DNA from: Escherichia phage 241Ecol014PP
Direction: 5' to 3' (one strand)
DNA: 64,000 nucleotides
Sequence record: OR062943.1
The translations under genes were made by a program, and so were the position numbers. Below, piece after piece: positions 7,593 to 48,946 of this stretch; within the stretch, counting starts at the first letter, position 1, and each line of letters begins with the position of its first letter. Under the pieces are notes generated by a model. That model was not told the DNA's origin. It saw only the letters and a list, made by a program, of their open reading frames with translations, and did no database searches.

Positions 7593-8003
7593 TCAGTTTA
7601 GCTTTTCTTCAACAACCCCATAACTTGGGGCAGAGTCAAGAGCTTTCTGGTTTAAAAGTGGTGTAGCAGAATCTGCAAACGGTGTCCAAGTTTTTGTTCT
7701 GGCATTCCAGTAATGCTTCACTCTAGAATCTGGGTGCACTATAACAAAAACTTTTTCACTTGTCAACACATTAATTTCTTCCACACCTTTGCTGATAATT
7801 TCTCCGTCATATCCTCCGGTCTGGTATCCTTCGTACCAGGTTCTTGCATAGGCATAGCCAGCCTGCCAGCATGCAGCCTCCTCCGAGGTGGAGACTACGT
7901 AGAAGTCTTTCTCAAATTCTGGGATACGCCCTTGCTTTACGCTCCAAGTTCCGCGAATTTTCATTGTAACTTTGAACAGTTTATTTTTCACAACGGTTAC
8001 CAA
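7593..8003 (-). CDS. hypothetical protein, paralog of 5386-5781
   Basis: Shared C-terminal motif with 5386-5781. Confidence 0.5.
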   Translation of the reverse strand: MVTVVKNKLFKVTMKIRGTWSVKQGRIPEFEKDFYVVSTSEEAACWQAGYAYARTWYEGYQTGGYDGEIISKGVEEINVLTSEKVFVIVHPDSRVKHYWNARTKTWTPFADSATPLLNQKALDSAPSYGVVEEKLN

Positions 8004-35425: not shown

Positions 35426-36709
35426 TCATTCCAGAACCTCCCAAGTATCTGGGTTAACATTTCGGACGCAGATACCGACAGGGAATTGGTAGTTGTTGTC
35501 TTCTGTCCTTGCTTGATATTTGAAGGTGACAAACTTGCCGATCATTTCCTGCATCCTGTCATAGCTACGCTCCTCGTGCGTGCCTTTCATCTTCATTTTA
35601 ACAACAACACCCTCCTTGTCAACACAGATAAGAACACCTTCATCATTCTTATCTTTCTCAACGTCAATAACTTTCACCTCTGCGTCGTTGAACTTTTTCC
35701 ATTTCAATGCTTCAGATGTTCGCTGACCATACTCATACTTACCACAGAAGTTACGCATAATGGTACCTTCATATCCTTCAGACATAAATATACCAACAGA
35801 CTCTTCGCACCGATCAACTGTATATGCAAGCTCTGCATCAACAACCTTAATATGATCAAGCATCAAAGAAGAAATAGCACCATTTGCCTCCATAAGATCC
35901 TTACAGCGCCCAGACTCTGTTTCAGGATCCCACCACACCTTATCGCTAGGGATATCGAAAATATGATACTCTAAGTCGTAGCTGCAGTACCCTCCGTAAC
36001 GCAAATCATCACGAACAGGCTCAACATCAACAGGAATGTCCATCTTATTGAAGTTTTTGTATGTTGCTAAACCTGCCTTAATCGCAGCCTGACGGCGTTT
36101 TTTATCTGCCTCATAGTCTTTATCGATCTCGGCCTGAATCTCTTCCTGTGTGCGCCACCGTTTAGCAAGAGACACTATTTTCTGCAAAGGAAGACCATGA
36201 ATGTATAGTTCCCCATCAAGTTGTTTAATCCCAGTGGTAGAATGGAAAGAACGAAGTTGCTCTAAAAGCTTTCCTTGAATAGGGTAGGACTTATTACCAC
36301 GGGAAATAAATTTAGGCTCACCATTTTGGAAAACAACAAGCAGACGAAGGCCATCTAACTTACGCAAGATCCAGCAAGGTAATTTAAGTGCCTTGCCACG
36401 CTTCAGGTAGTCATGCACCAGCATGGGTAAAAGGTCAACACCCTGCTCGCAATCTTCCATGTTTTCAACATACCCCAGACGGACTTGTTTTTCCCACTTA
36501 CTGATCGCTTCCAGCTCGGCCTGTTGCTCAGCTGTAGTTTCATTGGTACGACCCACGTTCTTAGGTGTGCAGATCGTCTCTTTGTATTGCAGTTTACCAT
36601 CAAGCTTGCCAAACTCTACGATAACCTTATCACCATCCGTGAATACTTTCCACTGTTGGTAGCTGCCATCTTTGTTCAGTGCGTACAGTGTTGTTTTGAT
36701 TTGATGCAT
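35426..36709 (-). CDS. ATP-dependent DNA ligase
   Basis: Adenylation motif I KLDGLR within WILRKLDGLRLLVV. Confidence 0.7.
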   Translation of the reverse strand: MHQIKTTLYALNKDGSYQQWKVFTDGDKVIVEFGKLDGKLQYKETICTPKNVGRTNETTAEQQAELEAISKWEKQVRLGYVENMEDCEQGVDLLPMLVHDYLKRGKALKLPCWILRKLDGLRLLVVFQNGEPKFISRGNKSYPIQGKLLEQLRSFHSTTGIKQLDGELYIHGLPLQKIVSLAKRWRTQEEIQAEIDKDYEADKKRRQAAIKAGLATYKNFNKMDIPVDVEPVRDDLRYGGYCSYDLEYHIFDIPSDKVWWDPETESGRCKDLMEANGAISSLMLDHIKVVDAELAYTVDRCEESVGIFMSEGYEGTIMRNFCGKYEYGQRTSEALKWKKFNDAEVKVIDVEKDKNDEGVLICVDKEGVVVKMKMKGTHEERSYDRMQEMIGKFVTFKYQARTEDNNYQFPVGICVRNVNPDTWEVLE

Positions 36710-38063: not shown

Positions 38064-38825
38064 TTAAAGTTCCATAAAGTTTTCTACGGTCTCAATGAAT
38101 GTTTTATCAGAGAAAGCGTCAACCGCCCCGTTAAACCAAACTGGGATGCCGCGATCCTCATACTGGTAAATATCACTACGTGAAATTCCATTCTCCTCTA
38201 GATGCTGTGAGTCGTATTTGTTAACGATCAGCAGTTTGGTTCCCTTATTGCAGGCAGGGAATAGTTCCCAGTTAAAATTGATAACTGTGTTGGAACAACC
38301 TACAAGGATAACCATATCATTGCTCGTGAGAGAAGTCAACAGGTCATACATGTCTGTATACTTCGGAGCTACTTCTCCGAAGAACACCACATTAGGCTTA
38401 ACCCAGATATACTTTCCTGGATCTACCTCAGAGTATCCAATGTCCTTAATGACGTTACTTCCTTCATCGTCCTCATAGACTATTTCTGGCAAATACCCGT
38501 GGACATGTAGAATATCTTCATGTTTTACACCAGCACGCTCCAGCAAATCATCTACATTGGTGGTAAGATTGATCACACGGCCAGGCCAGCGGGAATACCA
38601 CTCAGCGATCCGGAGATGCGCAAGGTTAGGATCAACACTGCCCAGAGCTACACGGCGTGCATTGTAAAAGTCATGCACCTTATAGTAGTTCTTGGCAAAG
38701 GTGTGGATGTTGCACACCTCATCGATGCTGAAATTCTCCCACATTGCAGTGCTACCAGATCGGAAAGTGGGAATACCAGATTCAGCGCTCAAACCAGCAC
38801 CGGAGATAATAATCAGTCGTCGCAT
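38064..38825 (-). CDS. Sir2-family NAD-dependent protein
   Basis: GAGLSAESGIPTFR and HVHGYL match sirtuin GAGISAESGI-TFR and H-HG blocks; no Zn-ribbon Cys seen. Confidence 0.7.
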   Translation of the reverse strand: MRRLIIISGAGLSAESGIPTFRSGSTAMWENFSIDEVCNIHTFAKNYYKVHDFYNARRVALGSVDPNLAHLRIAEWYSRWPGRVINLTTNVDDLLERAGVKHEDILHVHGYLPEIVYEDDEGSNVIKDIGYSEVDPGKYIWVKPNVVFFGEVAPKYTDMYDLLTSLTSNDMVILVGCSNTVINFNWELFPACNKGTKLLIVNKYDSQHLEENGISRSDIYQYEDRGIPVWFNGAVDAFSDKTFIETVENFMEL

Positions 38826-38833
38826 AAGTGTCC

Positions 38834-39214
38834 TCAGTAGATGTTTTGTTTAATCTCTATTCCAAACTTTTTAAACGAGTCAGCTGCAAGCATGAATTTA
38901 CGAGCCGCTGATGGATTAGAAGTGTGCACGAAAATCTTCACGTTGTCAACTACAGGAGGCTTACCAAATACAAATTTTTCCTCTAACATGCAGAAACAGT
39001 CGTACCCTTCTAAGACTTCTCCTAAATCGCTGTCAAAATGCCACTCAGAAACGCGCCTGTAGAGCTTTCTATTATCGTTAATAAAATCCATGAACTCAGA
39101 AGAGTTCTTCAGCCAAAGAGCATTTTGGATTCCGTAATTTGACGGATCTCTCAAGTCATCCAGCCACACAATCAACTTCTTCATTGCATATAGTCCTCGT
39201 TGTGAAAATAGCAA
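38834..39214 (-). CDS. hypothetical protein in RNA-repair neighbourhood
   Basis: ORF track; real start may be internal Met (MKKLIVWLDD). Confidence 0.45.
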   Translation of the reverse strand: MLFSQRGLYAMKKLIVWLDDLRDPSNYGIQNALWLKNSSEFMDFINDNRKLYRRVSEWHFDSDLGEVLEGYDCFCMLEEKFVFGKPPVVDNVKIFVHTSNPSAARKFMLAADSFKKFGIEIKQNIY

Positions 39215-40116
39215 TCAAGTATCTCACGGCGTTCCTGCTCCAGGAGGCAGTTCCACACATCTTCTGTGTAATTGCTACGAATGAAGTTTACCATGCCGTA
39301 AAACTCTTCGTCAATACGTTTAAAGATATCATCATCCCAAATCTTCCAAGCTTTACCCCTCATTACGGCCTTCCGTGCCAAATAGTATGGAGACTTGATC
39401 TTCAGCTGCAGGTCATAAGGGTAGTAAGGCTTACGGATCATATACCCTTCGCCCCTTGTTTCTGCGGCTAATTCTTTTGCATAGCTGAACGGGATTTCAC
39501 GCACAGTGAGAGGACGTTTTGCACCAAGGTATTTGGCAATCCCATCTAAAGCTGCTTCTGGTAGCATTATTCCAGAATCATTATATCTGCAACCTATCAA
39601 ATATGCGCCATGGTCTTCTTGAACAATATGCGGATCTGAAGGGTGACAAATTTCAAACATGAATGTCATGTTTTCATTGCCCATAACCTTCTTGATAAGA
39701 TCTAAATTACCACATTGCTCTTGGATGGTTTCCTTTGCAAGGTTACAATATGGAGAATCAAGAGACCCGGTTGTTGAGAACAATAGGTCACCTTTATGAG
39801 ATGATACCACACCAAGGAATCCGTTCTTTTTCTCTACCGCAGTCACAAGCTTATTGTCAGGCAGGTTGGTGGAGTTTTCTCCCAAGTTAAACACTTTTGT
39901 GAAGGGCCATGCCACAACATTTCCTTCATTACCTACAACAATGCCTCGGCACTCCAGTAAACGAGGGGACAAATACCATAAATTGTTGTAAAATACTTTT
40001 CTAGCATATTTATAGATCTTTAACCCCAGATCTGGGTAATACCTACTGGTTACAAGACCTTTGTCAACTAGGTCGTCTGCATTAAAATACTTCATCATAC
40101 GTTCCTCATTTGTCAT
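39181..40116 (-). CDS. nucleotidyltransferase, RNA ligase-like (KxNG lysine motif)
   Basis: VEKKNGFLGVVS motif I-like; divergent from polynucleotide kinase gene. Confidence 0.5.
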   Translation of the reverse strand: MTNEERMMKYFNADDLVDKGLVTSRYYPDLGLKIYKYARKVFYNNLWYLSPRLLECRGIVVGNEGNVVAWPFTKVFNLGENSTNLPDNKLVTAVEKKNGFLGVVSSHKGDLLFSTTGSLDSPYCNLAKETIQEQCGNLDLIKKVMGNENMTFMFEICHPSDPHIVQEDHGAYLIGCRYNDSGIMLPEAALDGIAKYLGAKRPLTVREIPFSYAKELAAETRGEGYMIRKPYYPYDLQLKIKSPYYLARKAVMRGKAWKIWDDDIFKRIDEEFYGMVNFIRSNYTEDVWNCLLEQERREILDCYFHNEDYMQ

Positions 40117-40216: not shown

Positions 40217-40627
40217 ATGTCTAAAATGCTATATATCGTGCGTGGTCTACCAGGGTCTGGCAAATCAACACTGGCAAATGCGCTATCTTTAGAGGGTCTG
40301 TATCCACATTTTGAGAACGACATGTTCTGGTATGACGATGACGGCAATTACAACTGGGATGCAAGTAAAGTAACACTCGCAGCGAAATGGTGCAAAGATA
40401 ACGTAGAAGATATGATGCGTATGGGATACGACCGTATCGTGGTAAGTAATACGTTTACAAAAGAAAAACATGTGCAGGAATATGTTGACATGGCAATCAG
40501 TCATGGGTATAGTTATACCGTGATCGTGGTTGAAAACCGCCACGGTAATAAAAGCATTCATGATGTTCCAGACAAGGTTGTGGATCGTATGGAACGCCAG
40601 CTTAAAAACTGCATTAAACTTAAATGA
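40217..40627 (+). CDS. pnk: polynucleotide 5'-kinase (P-loop)
   Basis: LYIVRGLPGSGKSTLA Walker A; start trimmed to ATG after GGAGGG. Confidence 0.7.
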   Translation: MSKMLYIVRGLPGSGKSTLANALSLEGLYPHFENDMFWYDDDGNYNWDASKVTLAAKWCKDNVEDMMRMGYDRIVVSNTFTKEKHVQEYVDMAISHGYSYTVIVVENRHGNKSIHDVPDKVVDRMERQLKNCIKLK

Positions 40628-40634
40628 GGAATGT

Positions 40635-41189
40635 ATGAAATACTTTGTAACAAGCGACACACACTTTCTCCACCAGCGGGTCATGGAGTTTGATTCATGT
40701 CAAAAACACAGATCTCAGTATGATCACAATCTTGACAGTATGAATGCGGGAATCATCGCCGAATGGAACTCTGTTGTGTCACCTGCAGACACTGTGTTCC
40801 ACTTGGGAGATATTGCGTGCACTAATGATAAGAATATCAACAACTTACTTCCAGATATTCTAAATATGTTGAACGGACATATTATTCTTGTTCGTGGCAA
40901 CCATGACACAAGGACGACTGTCAGAATTATGAAAGAGTTCGGTCATGAGGTTGTAGATTATTACGAGCTTCGCCACAACAAGAATTTGATCTGTATGAGC
41001 CATTACCAGTTTGCAAAGTGGAACAGAAAGCCTCACGGATCAGTCCAACTGTTCGGTCATGCTCACGGAACCACACAACAGTTGTTTGGCAGACAGTTTG
41101 ATGTCGGTTGGGATGTGTGGGGGAGACTCTTACCATTAGAAGAGGCATACCGTATTGCAATGAGTTTTGCTATTGACAGCGGGGAGTAA
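40635..41189 (+). CDS. calcineurin-like metallophosphoesterase
   Basis: SDTHF, GDI, GNHD metallophosphatase motifs; start trimmed to ATG after GAGGAA. Confidence 0.7.
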   Translation: MKYFVTSDTHFLHQRVMEFDSCQKHRSQYDHNLDSMNAGIIAEWNSVVSPADTVFHLGDIACTNDKNINNLLPDILNMLNGHIILVRGNHDTRTTVRIMKEFGHEVVDYYELRHNKNLICMSHYQFAKWNRKPHGSVQLFGHAHGTTQQLFGRQFDVGWDVWGRLLPLEEAYRIAMSFAIDSGE

Positions 41190-44038: not shown

Positions 44039-44067
44039 TTGACAAACTTTGCTTAACAGTGTAATAT
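44039..44067 (+). promoter_or_regulatory. sigma70-like promoter TTGACA-17-TAATAT upstream of tRNA cluster
   Basis: Direct reading. Confidence 0.5.
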
Positions 44068-44125: not shown

Positions 44126-44200
44126 GCCCTGTTAGCTTAGTGGATAAAGCAGCGGCCTTCTAAGCCGTTGACACTGGTTCGAGTCCAGTACGGGGTGCCA
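44126..44200 (+). tRNA. tRNA-Arg (anticodon TCT), CCA encoded
   Basis: Manual cloverleaf: acceptor GCCCTGT/ACGGGGT (two G-U), D GCTT/AAGC, anticodon loop CTTCTAA. Confidence 0.75.
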
Positions 44201-44330
44201 AGTTCTTTTTAATGTAGCTTACTTTAGCAGAGTAAATCTTCGGCAAGTGGCGGTAACCACTTTACCGATACCTCATAGTTAGTGGTGAGAACACTAGCTA
44301 TTTTAAAAAGAATTTAAATATTAGTATTTA

Positions 44331-44418
44331 GGTGAGTTAATTCCGTAGGGGTAGCGGGGCAGACTGTAAATCTGTTATCATTGCGATTCGGGTGGTTCGA
44401 CTCCATCACTCACCACCA
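44331..44418 (+). tRNA. tRNA-Tyr (anticodon GTA), class II, CCA encoded
   Basis: Acceptor GGTGAGT/ACTCACC; anticodon arm GCAGA-CTGTAAA-TCTGT as in recalled E. coli tRNA-Tyr. Confidence 0.8.
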
Positions 44419-44532
44419 AATTTATATTTTTAAATGCATAAATCATACAGATAATGGCATTGATATTTATCGTCGTTTATACTAGTCACTAACTGCTCGA
44501 AAATCAGTGTCATTATCAGTATTGTTTATAAA

Positions 44533-44623
44533 AGAGGGTAGGGAGCAATGGTGCTCAAGCGGTCTTGAAAACCGTCCCGTTGAGGATGACTCGATGATGG
44601 TTCGATTCCATTATCCTCTGCCA
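44533..44623 (+). tRNA. tRNA-Ser (anticodon TGA), class II, CCA encoded
   Basis: Acceptor AGAGGGT/ATCCTCT; anticodon loop CTTGAAA; long variable arm. Confidence 0.7.
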
Positions 44624-44721
44624 TATTGTTGACCTTGTAATTAAGCGAAAGCCGGAAGCAGAACCGGATTATCAAATGTTACAGTCGTCATCGCCGACTA
44701 GCAACATGGTCAACATACTGA

Positions 44722-44820
44722 GCTAGGTAAGCCCTTTGGCAAGGGCGAGGATTTTTAATCCTGAAAATAGACGAGGTAGTCGTTGAATACATAGGTGGTT
44801 CGATTCCACCGCCTAGCACC
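44722..44820 (+). tRNA. atypical ~97-nt tRNA-like element; anticodon unassigned (possibly TTT)
   Basis: Perfect acceptor GCTAGGT/GCCTAGC and T-arm GGTGG-TTCGATT-CCACC, but 65 nt between acceptor and T-arm. Confidence 0.4.
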
Positions 44821-44825
44821 TTTTT

Positions 44826-44901
44826 GCTGATGTAGCACAATTGGTAGTGCAATTGATTTGTAATCAATAGGTTGCAGGTTCAAGTCCTGCCATCAGCACC
44901 A
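44826..44901 (+). tRNA. tRNA-Thr (anticodon TGT), CCA encoded
   Basis: Full canonical 76-nt cloverleaf; anticodon loop TTTGTAA. Confidence 0.85.
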
Positions 44902-44902
44902 T

Positions 44903-44977
44903 GGCCCTGTAGCTGGAAGGTTCAAGCAAGCGACTCATAATCGCCAGACGGTGGTTCAATTCCACCCAGGGCCACCA
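44903..44977 (+). tRNA. tRNA-Met or tRNA-Ile2 (anticodon CAT), elongator type, CCA encoded
   Basis: Acceptor GGCCCTG/CAGGGCC paired at 1-72; anticodon loop CTCATAA. Confidence 0.8.
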
Positions 44978-44988
44978 AATAATAAATA

Positions 44989-45411
44989 CTCCGCGTAGCT
45001 CAGCTTGGTAGAGATAATCAAAGATGCACAAATGCAGTCGTTGTGGGGAAGAAGATCCATGTAAATTTTATGGTCATAAAAAGACTATATGTGGGAAATG
45101 TCACAATGAGTACACCATGAATCTTGGGAGGCAGAAACGACAGTATGCTGTAGACAAGTTAGGCGGTAAATGTATCAATTGTGGGTTCGATAAATGGATT
45201 GTTTCTTTAGATATTCACCATTTAGACCCTAAAATTAAAGACTCTAAATTTGCTCAAATGAGAGGTTGGAGTCTGCAAAGAATTGATAATGAAATTAAAA
45301 ACTGTGTATTACTTTGTAGAAATTGTCATGCTGCCGTACATGCAGGACTTTTAGAACTACCATAACTTTGGGATCAGGAGGTCGAGTGTTCGAATCACTC
45401 CGTGGAGACCA
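44989..45411 (+). tRNA. class II tRNA gene interrupted in the anticodon loop by an HNH endonuclease ORF (halves 44989-45027 and 45363-45411; anticodon GCT/Ser if loop is AUGC+UAA)
   Basis: 5' half CTCCGCG-TA-GCTCAGCTTGGTAGAG..CAAAG; 3' half CTTTG-GGATCAGGAGGTC-GAGTGTTCGAATCACTC-CGTGGAG-A-CCA; acceptor 7/7, anticodon stem 5/5. Confidence 0.5.
45024..45365 (+). CDS. HNH endonuclease located inside the split tRNA gene
   Basis: CINCG...LDIHHLDP...N...LLCRNCHAAVH; ATG at 45024 directly after anticodon-stem strand, TAA at 45363-45365 directly before its complement. Confidence 0.75.
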   Translation: MHKCSRCGEEDPCKFYGHKKTICGKCHNEYTMNLGRQKRQYAVDKLGGKCINCGFDKWIVSLDIHHLDPKIKDSKFAQMRGWSLQRIDNEIKNCVLLCRNCHAAVHAGLLELP

Positions 45412-46232: not shown

Positions 46233-46516
46233 GAGTTGCTGCACTGTTTATTGTGTGCTTGTTATTGTGTGGGTGTGCAACCAGCGTTGAGAGAGAATAC
46301 AAGATTGACCCTCCAGATGTAGGAAGGTTGATTGTTAAACCCCCGGAAGGTGCCATGAAACCACCTGCTAAAGCTATACCTTTAAAGAAAGGTGCGCCAG
46401 ATGCGGTGAATTCTGGCATTATGAGGGATAATAATCTGTCTTGTAGCAATGATAGAGCTAAATTGATCATTTTGCAAGACTATATTAGAACACTGTTTCC
46501 AAAGGAGAGAGGTTAA
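46229..46516 (+). CDS. o-spanin-like outer-membrane lipoprotein (proline-rich)
   Basis: Signal peptide with LLCGC lipobox-like Cys; KPPEGAMKPPAKAIP. Confidence 0.55.
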   Translation: MRVAALFIVCLLLCGCATSVEREYKIDPPDVGRLIVKPPEGAMKPPAKAIPLKKGAPDAVNSGIMRDNNLSCSNDRAKLIILQDYIRTLFPKERG

Positions 46517-46944
46517 TGTCTAAGATTTACGGACCGTGTTCTGAAAAGCAGAAGATGATCCTAGAAAACGATGCAGATATTTTGGTAATCGGCGGTGCCG
46601 CAGGGTCTGGCAAGTCGTTCCTCTTGCAGTTGATGCCACTTAAAATTATTGATGACCCCCACAGCTCTGTGGTTATGTTCCGAAGAACAACCCCACAGTT
46701 GGAAGGTGAGGGTGGACTATGGCCTAAAGCAGTAGCTATTTATAGTGATCTGCCTGAAAACATTAAGCCAAAGTTCAGAGAGAAGGATCATAAGTTCATT
46801 TTCCCACGATTTGATCCGAGAACTGGCAAGTGGGATAGAAGCAAAAAGGGAGCTGTTGTAAAATACTGCCACATGGAGTATGTACAAGATAAGCTTAACC
46901 ATCAAGGGCTTGAGTACACCATGGTTTGCTTCGATGAGGGTTAA
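46516..46944 (+). CDS. terL: terminase large subunit, exon 1 (ATPase: Walker A and B)
   Basis: Walker A GGAAGSGKS; ends right after Walker B VCFDEG. Confidence 0.8.
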   Translation: MSKIYGPCSEKQKMILENDADILVIGGAAGSGKSFLLQLMPLKIIDDPHSSVVMFRRTTPQLEGEGGLWPKAVAIYSDLPENIKPKFREKDHKFIFPRFDPRTGKWDRSKKGAVVKYCHMEYVQDKLNHQGLEYTMVCFDEG

Positions 46945-47857
46945 TTTGTAGCTCTCGTAAAACCTCCCTAATTGCGGGGAAATCTTTATTATTGACACCA
47001 CCAACCTGTCATGGTAACATGATAGAGGCTTCGAAGAGAGATCGAAGGTATGGTAACAGTGTGTTAATTTAGATAATCCGCAGCGAAGCGTCCGAGAGGA
47101 TGAACGTTCAACGACTAGTCGAAAGACGTAGAATCAAGCGATTCGAAACGGGAGGGTGAATGTGTAATACTAAAAAATGTATGGATTGCCAAAGAGTTCT
47201 ACCTATTGATGATTTCTTTTTATCATCTAAGAGCAAGGATGGATACTCAGGTACATGCAAGGAATGCTATATGTACTACAGGAAGGGTGGATCTCGTAAA
47301 AACAAAAATATGGTTAAGAGAGATGACGCAGCATTGTTTATTCAAGACTTGCTGGAGAAAGGTGAACTTTTTGAATGCAAATCTTGTCATGAAAGTATGC
47401 TAGCTGATAGTTTTTACACAAAACGTGACTATGGTAAAGTATATCTGGTTACGAACAGGTGTAAGATGTGTGAAAAGTTTTATCAGATTGAGAAGAAATT
47501 TCACATAACAAAAGATGAATACTATCGTCTACTCTCAGATCAAGATCATAAGTGTGCCATTTGTAGAATATCCCTTGATGAGTATAGGACGCAAGGGTAC
47601 AGAGATTTCTTTTGTGTTGATCATGACCATAAAACTGGTGCTGTAAGAGGGTTGCTTTGTGATAAATGCAACAGAGCTTTAGGTTTCTTCCAAGAAGATG
47701 AGGAAACTATTCTTAGAGCGGCAGAGTATTTACACATTCATAAGATATAGTCTGGTCTGCATGGAGACATGCAGCTGCCTGAAAATGGCGGGGCAAGACT
47801 AGCGACCTTGCCCGAACATAAACGACACAATTCGAATGGGAGCAGATAGACTATCTG
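46945..47857 (+). mobile_element. putative group I intron in terL carrying an Endo VII-family endonuclease ORF (boundaries approximate)
   Basis: P AATTGCGGGGAAA (46970-46982), Q AATCCGCAGC (47066-47075), R GTTCAACGACTAGTC (47106-47120); internal TTGACA-17-TAACAT (46992-47020). Confidence 0.65.
47160..47750 (+). CDS. Endonuclease VII-family homing endonuclease (intron ORF)
   Basis: CVDHDHKTGAVRGLLCDKCNRALG; N-terminal Cys-rich zinc-finger-like repeats. Confidence 0.7.
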   Translation: MCNTKKCMDCQRVLPIDDFFLSSKSKDGYSGTCKECYMYYRKGGSRKNKNMVKRDDAALFIQDLLEKGELFECKSCHESMLADSFYTKRDYGKVYLVTNRCKMCEKFYQIEKKFHITKDEYYRLLSDQDHKCAICRISLDEYRTQGYRDFFCVDHDHKTGAVRGLLCDKCNRALGFFQEDEETILRAAEYLHIHKI

Positions 47858-48946
47858 ATGTCTCGTCTGCGATCTCAGTCAAAGTATCCATCAAGAATGG
47901 TTATCAGCTGTAACCCCGATTCAGAACACATGCTTGCCAAACTGGTTAGATGGTGGTTGGACGATGAAGGGTATCCAGATCCGGAGAAATGCGGTAAGAA
48001 AAGATATTTTATCCGACGCGACGGTGAATTTATCTGGGGAGACTCTAAAGAAGAGTTGATAGAGAAATACACCACGGTTAACGGACTGGGTGTGGAGATC
48101 AAGCCGAGACCGTTGTCATTCTCGTTTATAGGCGCAACAATATTCGATAATCCTGTCTGCTTAAGAGACAACCCAGAATACCTTGCTTTCCTTGAAGGTC
48201 TGCCGGAACTGGAAAAAGCTCAGCTTCTTCATGGTAACTGGTTTGCAAAGCCTGAGGGTGCAAACTATTTTCAAAGATCTTTCCTTCGTGATGCCGATAG
48301 AGTACCCCTTGGATCAGTATCTTGTAGGGCATGGGATAAGGCAGGAACCGAGAGAACTTCCGGTAATAAATTTCCTGACTTTACCGCCAGTGTTAAGGTA
48401 AGTAAAGATAGCGACGGCTTTTATTACCTGTCCGGTGATTATTGTCCTGAGAACGTGGATGACGGGAGGTATTCCACAGGTCTGGAAGGTAAGTTCTGTA
48501 AAAAGGCTGGTGAACGAGATGTGATCATCAGGAAACAGGCGCAGTTTGATGGTGACGATTGTATAATCGTATTCTCTGTGGACCCAGGTCAGGCAGGTAA
48601 GAGTGAGTTCTTAACCTCCTCCAGATCCTTACTCGCCGAAGGGTTTAGGGTTGAAGAAGACCCAATGCCTTCCAACAAATCTAAACTGACAAGATTCTCA
48701 CCTTTTGCCAATCTTGCCCAACAAGGAATGGTGAGGATTGTAAAATCCAGTTTCCATCCTGATACTCTGGAAGCATTTCTGACTGAACTTGAAAAATTCA
48801 ACGGGGAAAGATCAACATTTAACAGAAAAGACGACTGGGCCGACTGTGTAGCTTCTGCGATTAATTTCCTGGAGAAAGAGGAGGTAGCACTTCCTTGTGT
48901 GATTCCATCAATCTCATCACCTTCTATGTTCAAGCGTTTTATCTAA
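47858..48946 (+). CDS. terL: terminase large subunit, exon 2 (nuclease domain)
   Basis: VISCNP coupling-motif-like block and C-terminal DDWADCVA; 5' boundary approximate. Confidence 0.8.
   Translation: MSRLRSQSKYPSRMVISCNPDSEHMLAKLVRWWLDDEGYPDPEKCGKKRYFIRRDGEFIWGDSKEELIEKYTTVNGLGVEIKPRPLSFSFIGATIFDNPVCLRDNPEYLAFLEGLPELEKAQLLHGNWFAKPEGANYFQRSFLRDADRVPLGSVSCRAWDKAGTERTSGNKFPDFTASVKVSKDSDGFYYLSGDYCPENVDDGRYSTGLEGKFCKKAGERDVIIRKQAQFDGDDCIIVFSVDPGQAGKSEFLTSSRSLLAEGFRVEEDPMPSNKSKLTRFSPFANLAQQGMVRIVKSSFHPDTLEAFLTELEKFNGERSTFNRKDDWADCVASAINFLEKEEVALPCVIPSISSPSMFKRFI

Follow-up and report, generated by a model that had tools for sequence, protein, structure and literature searches.

The 64,000-nt stretch of DNA analysed here (the window), from Escherichia phage 241Ecol014PP (OR062943.1), belongs to a Vequintavirus, an rV5-like E. 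coli myophage, and contains a tRNA-like element of ~97 nt at 44722–44820 (+) inside a tRNA operon. Judged by comparison with its relatives, the element is a member of a real, selected, L-shaped tRNA-like RNA gene family that is uncatalogued. The covariation described below indicates that a tRNA core, comprising a 7-bp acceptor stem, a 5-bp T stem, a D loop with GG and the tertiary pair 19:56, is kept by selection across distant phages. No Rfam family matches the element, and literature searches on tRNA-like RNAs of Vequintavirinae and rV5 found no description of it.

Fold and covariation of the element

An earlier reading made from the letters alone (the sequence-only reading) had listed acceptor, D, anticodon-position, variable and T-arm motifs and a CC-ending 3′ terminus, and all of these are indeed present at the coordinates given below, together with the 65 nt (44729–44793) that separate the acceptor 5′ strand from the T arm. 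The acceptor stem forms between GCUAGGU (44722–44728) and GCCUAGC (44811–44817). It had been called a perfect 7-bp stem; seven pairs do form, but the stem is not perfect because its seventh pair is a U7·G66 wobble that follows six Watson–Crick pairs, at a place where relatives mostly have U:A. Positions 8 and 9 (AA, 44729–44730) come next, A8 being invariant in the family in place of the usual U8 and position 9 being A or G. The D arm, GCCCTT-TGGC-AAGGGC (44731–44746), can be read as a 6-bp stem (GCCC/GGGC plus invariant UU/AA) with the 4-nt loop UGGC or as a 4-bp stem with an 8-nt loop. A G at 44747, which forms an invariant alignment column and represents either position 26 or a mismatched position 27, precedes the anticodon-like hairpin AGGA-UUUUUAA-UCCU (44748–44762). 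The tight hairpin AGGATT-TTT-AATCCT proposed for this arm, with a 6-bp stem and a UUU loop, is present; the same nucleotides are equally readable as a 4-bp stem with the 7-nt loop UUUUUAA, which is how the Rfam tRNA model aligns them.

The 3′ half consists of single-stranded GAAAA (44763–44767), the variable-arm hairpin GACGA-GGUAG-UCGUU (44770–44784; core ACGA-GGTAG-TCGT, 44771–44783), single-stranded AUACAUA (44787–44793), which abuts the 5′ side of the T stem, and the T arm GGUGG-UUCGAUU-CCACC (44794–44810) with its canonical T loop. The equivalents of G19 and C56 lie at 44739 and 44801. After the acceptor 3′ strand, the element ends in the discriminator A73 (44818) and CC (44819–44820); the terminal A is not encoded, the next nucleotide is U and the 3′ trailer reads CCUUUUU. 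The sequence thus bears out the earlier remark that CC is followed by T, unlike in the other tRNAs of the window, all six of which (Arg, Tyr, Ser, Thr and Met types) encode CCA. The absent CCA is a peculiarity of this lineage, since most family members encode U73-CCA. The minimum-free-energy fold of the element is a five-helix cloverleaf-like shape (z = −3.8 versus shuffles).

Homologues were collected by BLAST, with the window copy and afterwards diverged copies as queries, and by pattern scans of viral and metagenome contigs. The resulting 33 distinct sequences come from five genera of Vequintavirinae, an N4-like phage of the Schitoviridae and metagenomes, and all homologues have the same fold shape, with acceptor, D, anticodon-like, variable and T helices. 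Thirty-one sequences were aligned with MAFFT (alignment A2), 20 pairs were counted in the alignment (seven in the acceptor stem, four in the D stem, three in the anticodon-like stem, five in the T stem and the tertiary pair 19:56), and a covariance model, R1, was built from it. Standard pairs fill 620 of the 620 cells of A2, compared with 33–47% when the partners are slid by 1–3 columns. Double changes occur in 11 of the 20 pairs, and no shuffle reached the observed covariation. All seven acceptor pairs are kept in 31 of 31 sequences, with double changes in five of them; covariation is present in three of the four outer D-stem pairs, in the anticodon-like stem (AU 19, GC 10, GU 2; n = 31) and in T-stem pair 51:63 (UA 26, CG 5; n = 31). 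RNAalifold independently returned the same helices, with a D stem of 6 bp. The inner D-stem pairs, UU/AA, are invariant and lack covariation support; because they never vary, the 6-bp D stem is unproven.

The tertiary elbow covaries as well. Pair 19:56 is GC in 22 sequences, UA in nine and broken in none (n = 31), the change running from G19:C56 to U19:A56, with D loop UUUGGCAA occurring only with T loop UUCGAUU and D loop UUUGUCAA only with UUAGAUU. This, the most telling of the covariation results, implies that selection acts on the tRNA elbow and hence on the L shape.

The region between the anticodon-like arm and the T arm measures 25–35 nt in the family (31 nt in the window copy) and has a fixed layout of GAAAA, a hairpin of highly variable sequence and AUACAUA. 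GAAAA is invariant in 31 of 31 sequences of A2, and GUAAAA replaces it in two copies, those of contig L098 and of phage UTK0002. AUACAUA is kept in all members, including copies found by BLAST or, for L098, by a D-arm pattern, methods that do not require the motif. The intervening hairpin occurs in every homologue with unrelated sequences. Its stem shows compensation in phage Av-05, where ACGA/UCGU has become ACGG/CCGU (A:U to G:C); in other types GCC/GGC, GUC/GAC, AGCG/CGCU and UUCC/GGAA alternate around a conserved loop, and one type keeps the 13-nt loop GAAYUAACAGUAC across copies that have different anticodon-like loops. Inspection by eye revealed no pairing of the conserved single strands with the anticodon-like loop or the variable loop that was consistent across types. 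With model R1, members score 86–118 bits and ordinary tRNAs at most 28 bits, and the window contains a single copy.

Distribution, labels and model scores

A 2.5-kb query around the element matched ~100 rV5-like genomes over most of its length at 95–99% identity. BLAST located the element in Vequintavirus, in the Avunavirus phage Av-05, in the Seunavirus phages KE22, SSE121, PVP-SE1, GAP31, 4MG and EspYZU, in the Mydovirus phages KB57, Mydo, AV124 and M5b, and in the Henunavirus phages Hena1 and pEa_SNUABM_56. In other genera, the element begins 2–5 nt past the CCA of the preceding tRNA, and U73-CCA is encoded. A further, unannotated member lies inside the tRNA cluster of Salmonella phage vB_SenP_UTK0002, a 71-kb N4-like podovirus (locus L171, 2501–2608; 108.6 bits). 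Because this phage belongs to the Schitoviridae, its copy indicates that the element moved horizontally between unrelated phage families, and its presence there suggests that the element is useful as a self-contained module. When 5,426 complete E. coli genomes were searched with the element by blastn, no match appeared; the element is therefore neither a copy of a host tRNA nor prophage-borne.

Several candidates from the scans were rejected. The sole match of the pattern scan in bacterial genomes, in Sporosarcina, has no tRNA-like fold and was attributed to chance. A loose D-arm pattern returned 120 loci in viral contigs, mostly chance matches, of which the covariance model kept only L098 and L154; low-GC loci of ~98 nt from the same scan were discarded for want of a T arm. 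One isolate has lost most of the element: in phage V18 (L006, 876–1123), a 401-bp deletion with GTC microhomology has joined the 5′ half of tRNA-Tyr to the 3′-terminal third of the element, removing tRNA-Ser and leaving a chimeric, unpaired ‘tRNA’. This deletion indicates that the element is dispensable in at least one isolate.

Existing annotations of the locus disagree. GenBank records label it tRNA-OTHER in navn, ime, Murica and others, and tRNA-Lys, a call of tRNAscan-based annotators, in LL12 and the BASEL phages; the LL12 entry carries the note ‘isotype prediction via tRNAscan-SE inconsistent’. Further labels include tRNA-TERM and tRNA-???(atcc). The element is unannotated in rV5, FV3 and ECML-10, and the paper on the rV5 genome counts six tRNAs without mentioning it (PMC3606486). 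In most of the genomes located by BLAST, it is unannotated or overlaid by spurious short coding sequences; in Henunavirus the label is tRNA-TERM. Approximately 18 GenBank records named ‘Campylobacter phage’ (MG0656xx) are 98% identical to E. coli rV5-like phages in the element region and are probably mislabelled or derive from phages grown on contaminating hosts.

The sequence-only reading had proposed scoring the element with tRNA models, and both programs applied to the window copy respond to it. ARAGORN calls tRNA-???(atcc), a 4-base anticodon that we regard as an artefact of forcing a cloverleaf, and the Rfam tRNA model (RF00005) gives 31.0 bits against a gathering score of 29 in a sensitive run, with the match unreported in the default gathering run. 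Seunavirus and Avunavirus copies were not called by ARAGORN. Relatives fall below every Rfam gathering score; their best match is the tRNA-Sec model (RF01852), at 23.2–37.6 bits against a gathering score of 47, and ordinary Ser and Tyr tRNAs reach similar scores with that model. Membership in tRNA-Sec was rejected on these scores, other class II tRNAs being equally weak matches, and for the window copy the tRNA model outscores the tRNA-Sec model. No tmRNA was found by ARAGORN, and the Rfam model of YrlA reached 16.6 bits against a gathering score of 69.

Relation to known tRNAs and candidate roles

The element probably works like a class II or Sec-like tRNA and descends from one; its membership in canonical tRNA is borderline. 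It shares with class II tRNAs (RF00005) the 7/5 acceptor–T branch, the T loop UUCGAUU, the GG of the D loop, the 19:56 elbow, an extra arm between the anticodon and T arms, location in a tRNA operon and a discriminator followed by CCA. It differs from them in its anticodon arm of 14–16 nt with loops of 6–8 nt, in its frequent A33, in having A8/U14 in place of U8/A14 and no clear nucleotide 26, and in its 25–35-nt variable region with long, conserved single-stranded flanks. The earlier suggestion of a tRNA with an insertion therefore survives as a description, given the expanded variable region, but not as an explanation: the expansion is an ancient, conserved module with invariant flanks that defines the family, and the anticodon arm is abnormal too.

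With tRNA-Sec, allo-tRNAs and SelC* tRNA-Cys, the element shares a possible 6-bp D stem with a 4-nt NGGN loop and a long variable arm, as well as U73 in most members and a single body that carries many anticodons, including UAU and UCA. It departs from them in its anticodon stem, which is shorter rather than longer, and in its 7/5 branch, found in all members in place of 8/5, 8/4 or 9/3. The 13-bp acceptor/T branch of tRNA-Sec (8/5 in bacteria) is thus missing, and so is its combination of UCA with G73: the window copy has UUU and A73, and the Henunavirus type has UCA with U73 and A33. Allo-tRNAs have 8/4 or 9/3 branches, and some are unused in translation (Mukai et al. 2017; PMC5389517). The element has their Sec-like D arm, long variable arm and diverse anticodons on one body, combined with a 7/5 branch.

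Looser likenesses exist to other RNAs. T4 RNAC (species 1) and RNAD (species 2) are likewise small RNAs inside a phage tRNA cluster, and RNAC ends in a fold resembling a T arm and acceptor; they are 139 and 119 nt long and of another architecture, and they were rejected as homologues, with no R1 match on T4 70908–71171 and no T4-like match by BLAST. Their roles are still unknown (PMC3014915, PMC9697503). Nuclease-resistant phage tRNAs (the T5 tRNA-Lys that acts against PARIS and the anticodon-loop variants of van den Berg 2023) are also phage-encoded, with a Lys(UUU) loop that has an altered neighbouring base and an rnl1-type ligase in the genome. They are otherwise canonical and translate, whereas the element has a non-canonical body and sister copies with loops that cannot be decoded. 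By analogy, allo-tRNAs, T4 RNAC and RNAD, and these nuclease-resistant tRNAs appear to be the nearest functional counterparts.

A canonical tRNA anticodon arm has 17 nt; the corresponding arm has 15 nt in the window copy and the Henunavirus type, 16 nt in the copies of Seunavirus and Mydovirus and, in a single copy from a metagenome, 14 nt. Loops of 7 nt are UUUUUAA, UUUAUAA and CAUCAAA; a loop of 6 or 8 nt is CAUCCA, with the variants CAGCCA, CUUCCA and CCUCCA, and a 6-nt loop is GUGAUA. The anticodon-like identity therefore varies on a constant body (UUU, UAU, UCC/GCC, UCA and GAU). Most copies outside Vequintavirus (Seunavirus, Mydovirus and Henunavirus) have A33; the window copy has four Watson–Crick anticodon-stem pairs (plus G·G), a 7-nt loop, U33 and A37.

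The loops resemble those of host tRNAs, for which three tRNA sequences were verified across all E. coli genomes. The element's A-UUUUUAA-U in the Vequintavirus window differs from the tRNA-Lys loop A-CUUUUAA-U only at position 32; C-C[A/U/C]UCCA-G in Seunavirus and Mydovirus corresponds to C-CUUCCAA-G of tRNA-Gly(UCC); and CAUCAAA of the Henunavirus type is one base away from CUUCAAA of tRNA-Sec. Nearly all lineages have U73 as discriminator and encode the CCA, whereas A73 occurs exactly in the lineage with the Lys-like loop. In E. coli, UUU and A73 make up the identity set of LysRS, and U73 with C35 and C36, together with G1:C72 and C2:G71, makes up most of that of GlyRS. This pattern of loop and discriminator, which reflects very few independent events, is suggestive of mimicry of host tRNAs. 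Canonical tRNAs accompany the element in KE22, which has tRNA-Gly(TCC), and in the L098 phage, which has tRNA-Lys(TTT); because their anticodons are the same as that of the element or related to it, the element is not simply filling a decoding gap. Its short arms, 6–8-nt loops, A33, changing loops, the calls missed by ARAGORN and the duplicate canonical tRNAs make it most likely that the element is not a standard decoder.

We tentatively favour, at somewhat less than even chances, the reading that the element is a tRNA mimic, its body constant and its copy of an anticodon loop exchangeable, and that it engages a host factor that binds tRNA, for instance an anticodon nuclease. We infer tRNA-like maturation from the shared strand and operon, the sigma-70-like promoter described below, and the spacing and U73-CCA in other genera. 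The element would be co-transcribed with the operon tRNAs and, given its position and ends, cut by RNase P at G1; the trailer CCUUUUU would be trimmed to ACC and the last A added by the host CCA-adding enzyme, which completes T4 tRNAs that lack an encoded CCA. The mature RNA is predicted to fold into an L shape in which the body and the GAAAA/AUACAUA module form the constant part, and the short anticodon-like hairpin would be the exchangeable part, conferring specificity by imitating the anticodon loop of a host tRNA; in the window copy, a tRNA-Lys(UUU)-like loop is combined with A73. The most plausible target would be a PrrC- or PARIS-like defence nuclease that cleaves tRNA, against which the RNA might act as bait, sponge or cleavage-proof stand-in. 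A decoy, one of the roles offered by the sequence-only reading, is possible within this range, with the mimic role favoured. A more ambitious version, in which a modular mimic spreads between unrelated phage families with Lys, Gly, Sec/opal and Ile loops and, as bait, sponge or inhibitor, neutralises immune nucleases or toxins that target tRNAs, seems to us unlikely as a whole.

Gene context and published work make a role in the tRNA-cleavage arms race plausible. An RNA ligase of the T4 Rnl1 family (PF09511, 54.5 bits) is encoded at 39181–40116 on the minus strand, 4.6 kb upstream of the element, and adjoins a calcineurin-like metallophosphoesterase at 40530–41189 (+); the two could form an RNA heal-and-seal (tRNA repair) module. 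T4 Rnl1 reseals tRNA-Lys cut by PrrC. Among coliphages, tRNA-Lys(UUU) co-occurs with rnl ligases, a combination directed against PrrC (PMC10264068), and the tRNA-Lys of T5 neutralises PARIS (PMC11455837).

Several observations weigh against a mimic. The resemblance of the loops may partly reflect ancestry from a Sec- or opal-like tRNA, and the Seunavirus/Mydovirus and Henunavirus loops are only a few changes apart. Loop type tracks phage genus and not host genus, contrary to what a host-specific decoy predicts. Phage V18 is viable after losing two-thirds of the element, and we know of no nuclease for Gly-like or Sec-like loops. Finally, when the G27·G43 mismatch is counted, the window copy has a 17-nt arm with U33, UUU, A37-A38 and A73, and this arm, together with the tRNA-Lys annotation, means that it could decode.

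That last point leads to the main alternative, a working but oddly built tRNA-Lys(UUU) that is charged by LysRS through UUU and A73 and used by the ribosome, either for Lys decoding when nucleases of the PrrC or PARIS type cleave host tRNA-Lys or as a supplement for AAA/AAG. Its long variable region would be no more of an obstacle than those of class II tRNAs, tRNA-Sec and allo-tRNAs. The 7-nt UUUUUAA loop with U33 and A37, A73, the canonical acceptor and T arm and the elbow pair are all compatible with this reading, as are the passing of the Rfam tRNA gathering score in sensitive mode, the LL12 and BASEL labels and the finding by ARAGORN that the window has no further tRNA-Lys. Allo-tRNAs with Sec-like D arms, long variable arms and varied anticodons translate in E. 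coli (PMC5389517), and the action of T5 tRNA-Lys on PARIS provides a precedent (PMC11455837). However, the anticodon stem has only four Watson–Crick pairs, nucleotide 26 is absent or a G·G mismatch is present, A8/U14 stand where U8/A14 would be expected, and the 31-nt variable region, with ~7 conserved, unpaired nucleotides on one side and ~9 on the other, is unlike that of any class II tRNA. Moreover, sister lineages that share this body combine it with 6-nt loops and A33 and have canonical duplicates in their own phages, and the LL12 record itself calls the isotype inconsistent. On this balance we consider a decoding tRNA-Lys doubtful.

We give a similar, low weight to a tRNA-shaped regulatory or cofactor RNA that acts through GAAAA, AUACAUA and its CCA end, binding a protein of phage or host or being charged without translating, with an anticodon-like loop under weak constraint. 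It would be comparable to T4 RNAC and to the tRNA-Other (pseudo-tRNA) of Bacillus cereus, a tRNA-like small RNA with reported Lys-related charging that is regulatory and not decoding; the latter is likened to the element by description only and is bacterial and chromosomal. The single-stranded motifs stay invariant while stems change, the motif is kept in copies found without requiring it, and the 13-nt loop GAAYUAACAGUAC is common to copies with different anticodon-like loops, all of which is in keeping with such an RNA. Irregular tRNAs that are charged but do not translate (PMC5389517) and RNAs of unknown role in the T4 tRNA cluster (PMC3014915) offer precedents. Against it, the loops are still anticodon-like, with A37 and A38.

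The two remaining explanations are essentially excluded. Mere RNase P or RNase E punctuation of the polycistronic transcript, the processing element of the sequence-only reading, would fit a tRNA-like shape within an operon and AU-rich single strands as potential RNase E sites, but is very improbable because the element sits between tRNAs that already supply RNase P sites, and its conserved D arm, elbow pair, anticodon-like arm, discriminator and CCA exceed what a cleavage signal needs. A decaying pseudogene (the degenerating gene of the earlier reading) or chance fold, to which the missing CCA, odd arms and V18 deletion might point, is barely conceivable for a sequence conserved in at least five Vequintavirinae genera and one Schitoviridae phage, with every stem cell paired, many compensatory substitutions including 11 covarying pairs across distant phages, R1 scores well apart from those of ordinary tRNAs and a fold z of −3.8.

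At a minimum, the 33 distinct sequences and their strong covariation define a clean new RNA family that is a candidate for Rfam and corrects genome annotation. rV5-like and related phages serve in phage typing, biocontrol and therapy and in the BASEL reference collection, yet the element is unannotated in them or stands under four conflicting labels. Phage tRNAs are now seen partly as countermeasures to tRNA-cleaving immunity; if the mimic reading is true, such countermeasures would include tRNA mimics as well as spare tRNAs, and an RNA shaped like a tRNA but with a swappable anticodon-like loop would give a handle on host factors that read the anticodon loop. A modular mimic, if real, would be an RNA-based anti-defence factor of a new kind.

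The tRNA operon and neighbouring genes

The operon (44126–44977, +), defined by ARAGORN and Rfam tRNA calls, begins with tRNA-Arg(TCT) (44126–44200, +), followed by tRNA-Tyr(GTA) (44331–44415, +) and tRNA-Ser(TGA) (44533–44623, +), which immediately precedes the element in gene order. Thereafter come tRNA-Thr(TGT) (44826–44901, +) and, as the last gene, tRNA-Met(CAT) (44903–44977, +). A candidate sigma-70-like promoter, TTGACA-17-TAATAT, recognised by its match to the consensus, precedes the operon at 44039–44067 (+), and the record of phage ECML-10 has a promoter annotated at the equivalent site. The tRNA-Tyr was missed by ARAGORN and found by the Rfam model at 39 bits. The gap between tRNA-Arg and tRNA-Tyr (44201–44330) is ~130 nt long in the window and in ECML-10, and 4 nt long in phage navn. 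Sub-threshold Rfam matches to ‘Plastid-ycf2 5′UTR’ lie on the minus strand at 44826–44899 and 44903–44975, antisense to tRNA-Thr and tRNA-Met, and are likewise antisense to tRNAs in relatives; they are evidently artefacts of an Rfam model that resembles antisense tRNA.

Two further loci in other phages drew attention. On L043, a 152-kb metagenomic phage contig, ARAGORN places a tRNA with a CTA anticodon (‘tRNA-Pyl’) at 7862–7934, in the same cluster as a family member; it is possibly an amber-suppressor tRNA. In Av-05 (L005, 1298–1380), a weak match to the tRNA-Sec model (29.6 bits), where ARAGORN finds no tRNA, may be another irregular long-arm tRNA-like gene.

Upstream, the cluster that holds the Rnl1-family ligase also encodes a Sir2-family protein (38064–38825, −) and an ATP-dependent DNA ligase (35426–36709, −), 4–9 kb from the tRNA operon. 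Directly 3′ of tRNA-Met lies an open reading frame for an HNH endonuclease of 113 aa (45024–45365, +), where ECML-10, LL12 and ime have tRNA-Pro(TGG); this looks like a replacement by a mobile endonuclease. Farther downstream, the large terminase gene is split into N-terminal and C-terminal open reading frames with an endonuclease VII/HNH-like frame between them (46516–46944, 47160–47750 and 47858–48946, all +), an arrangement that suggests an intron or a homing-endonuclease insertion.

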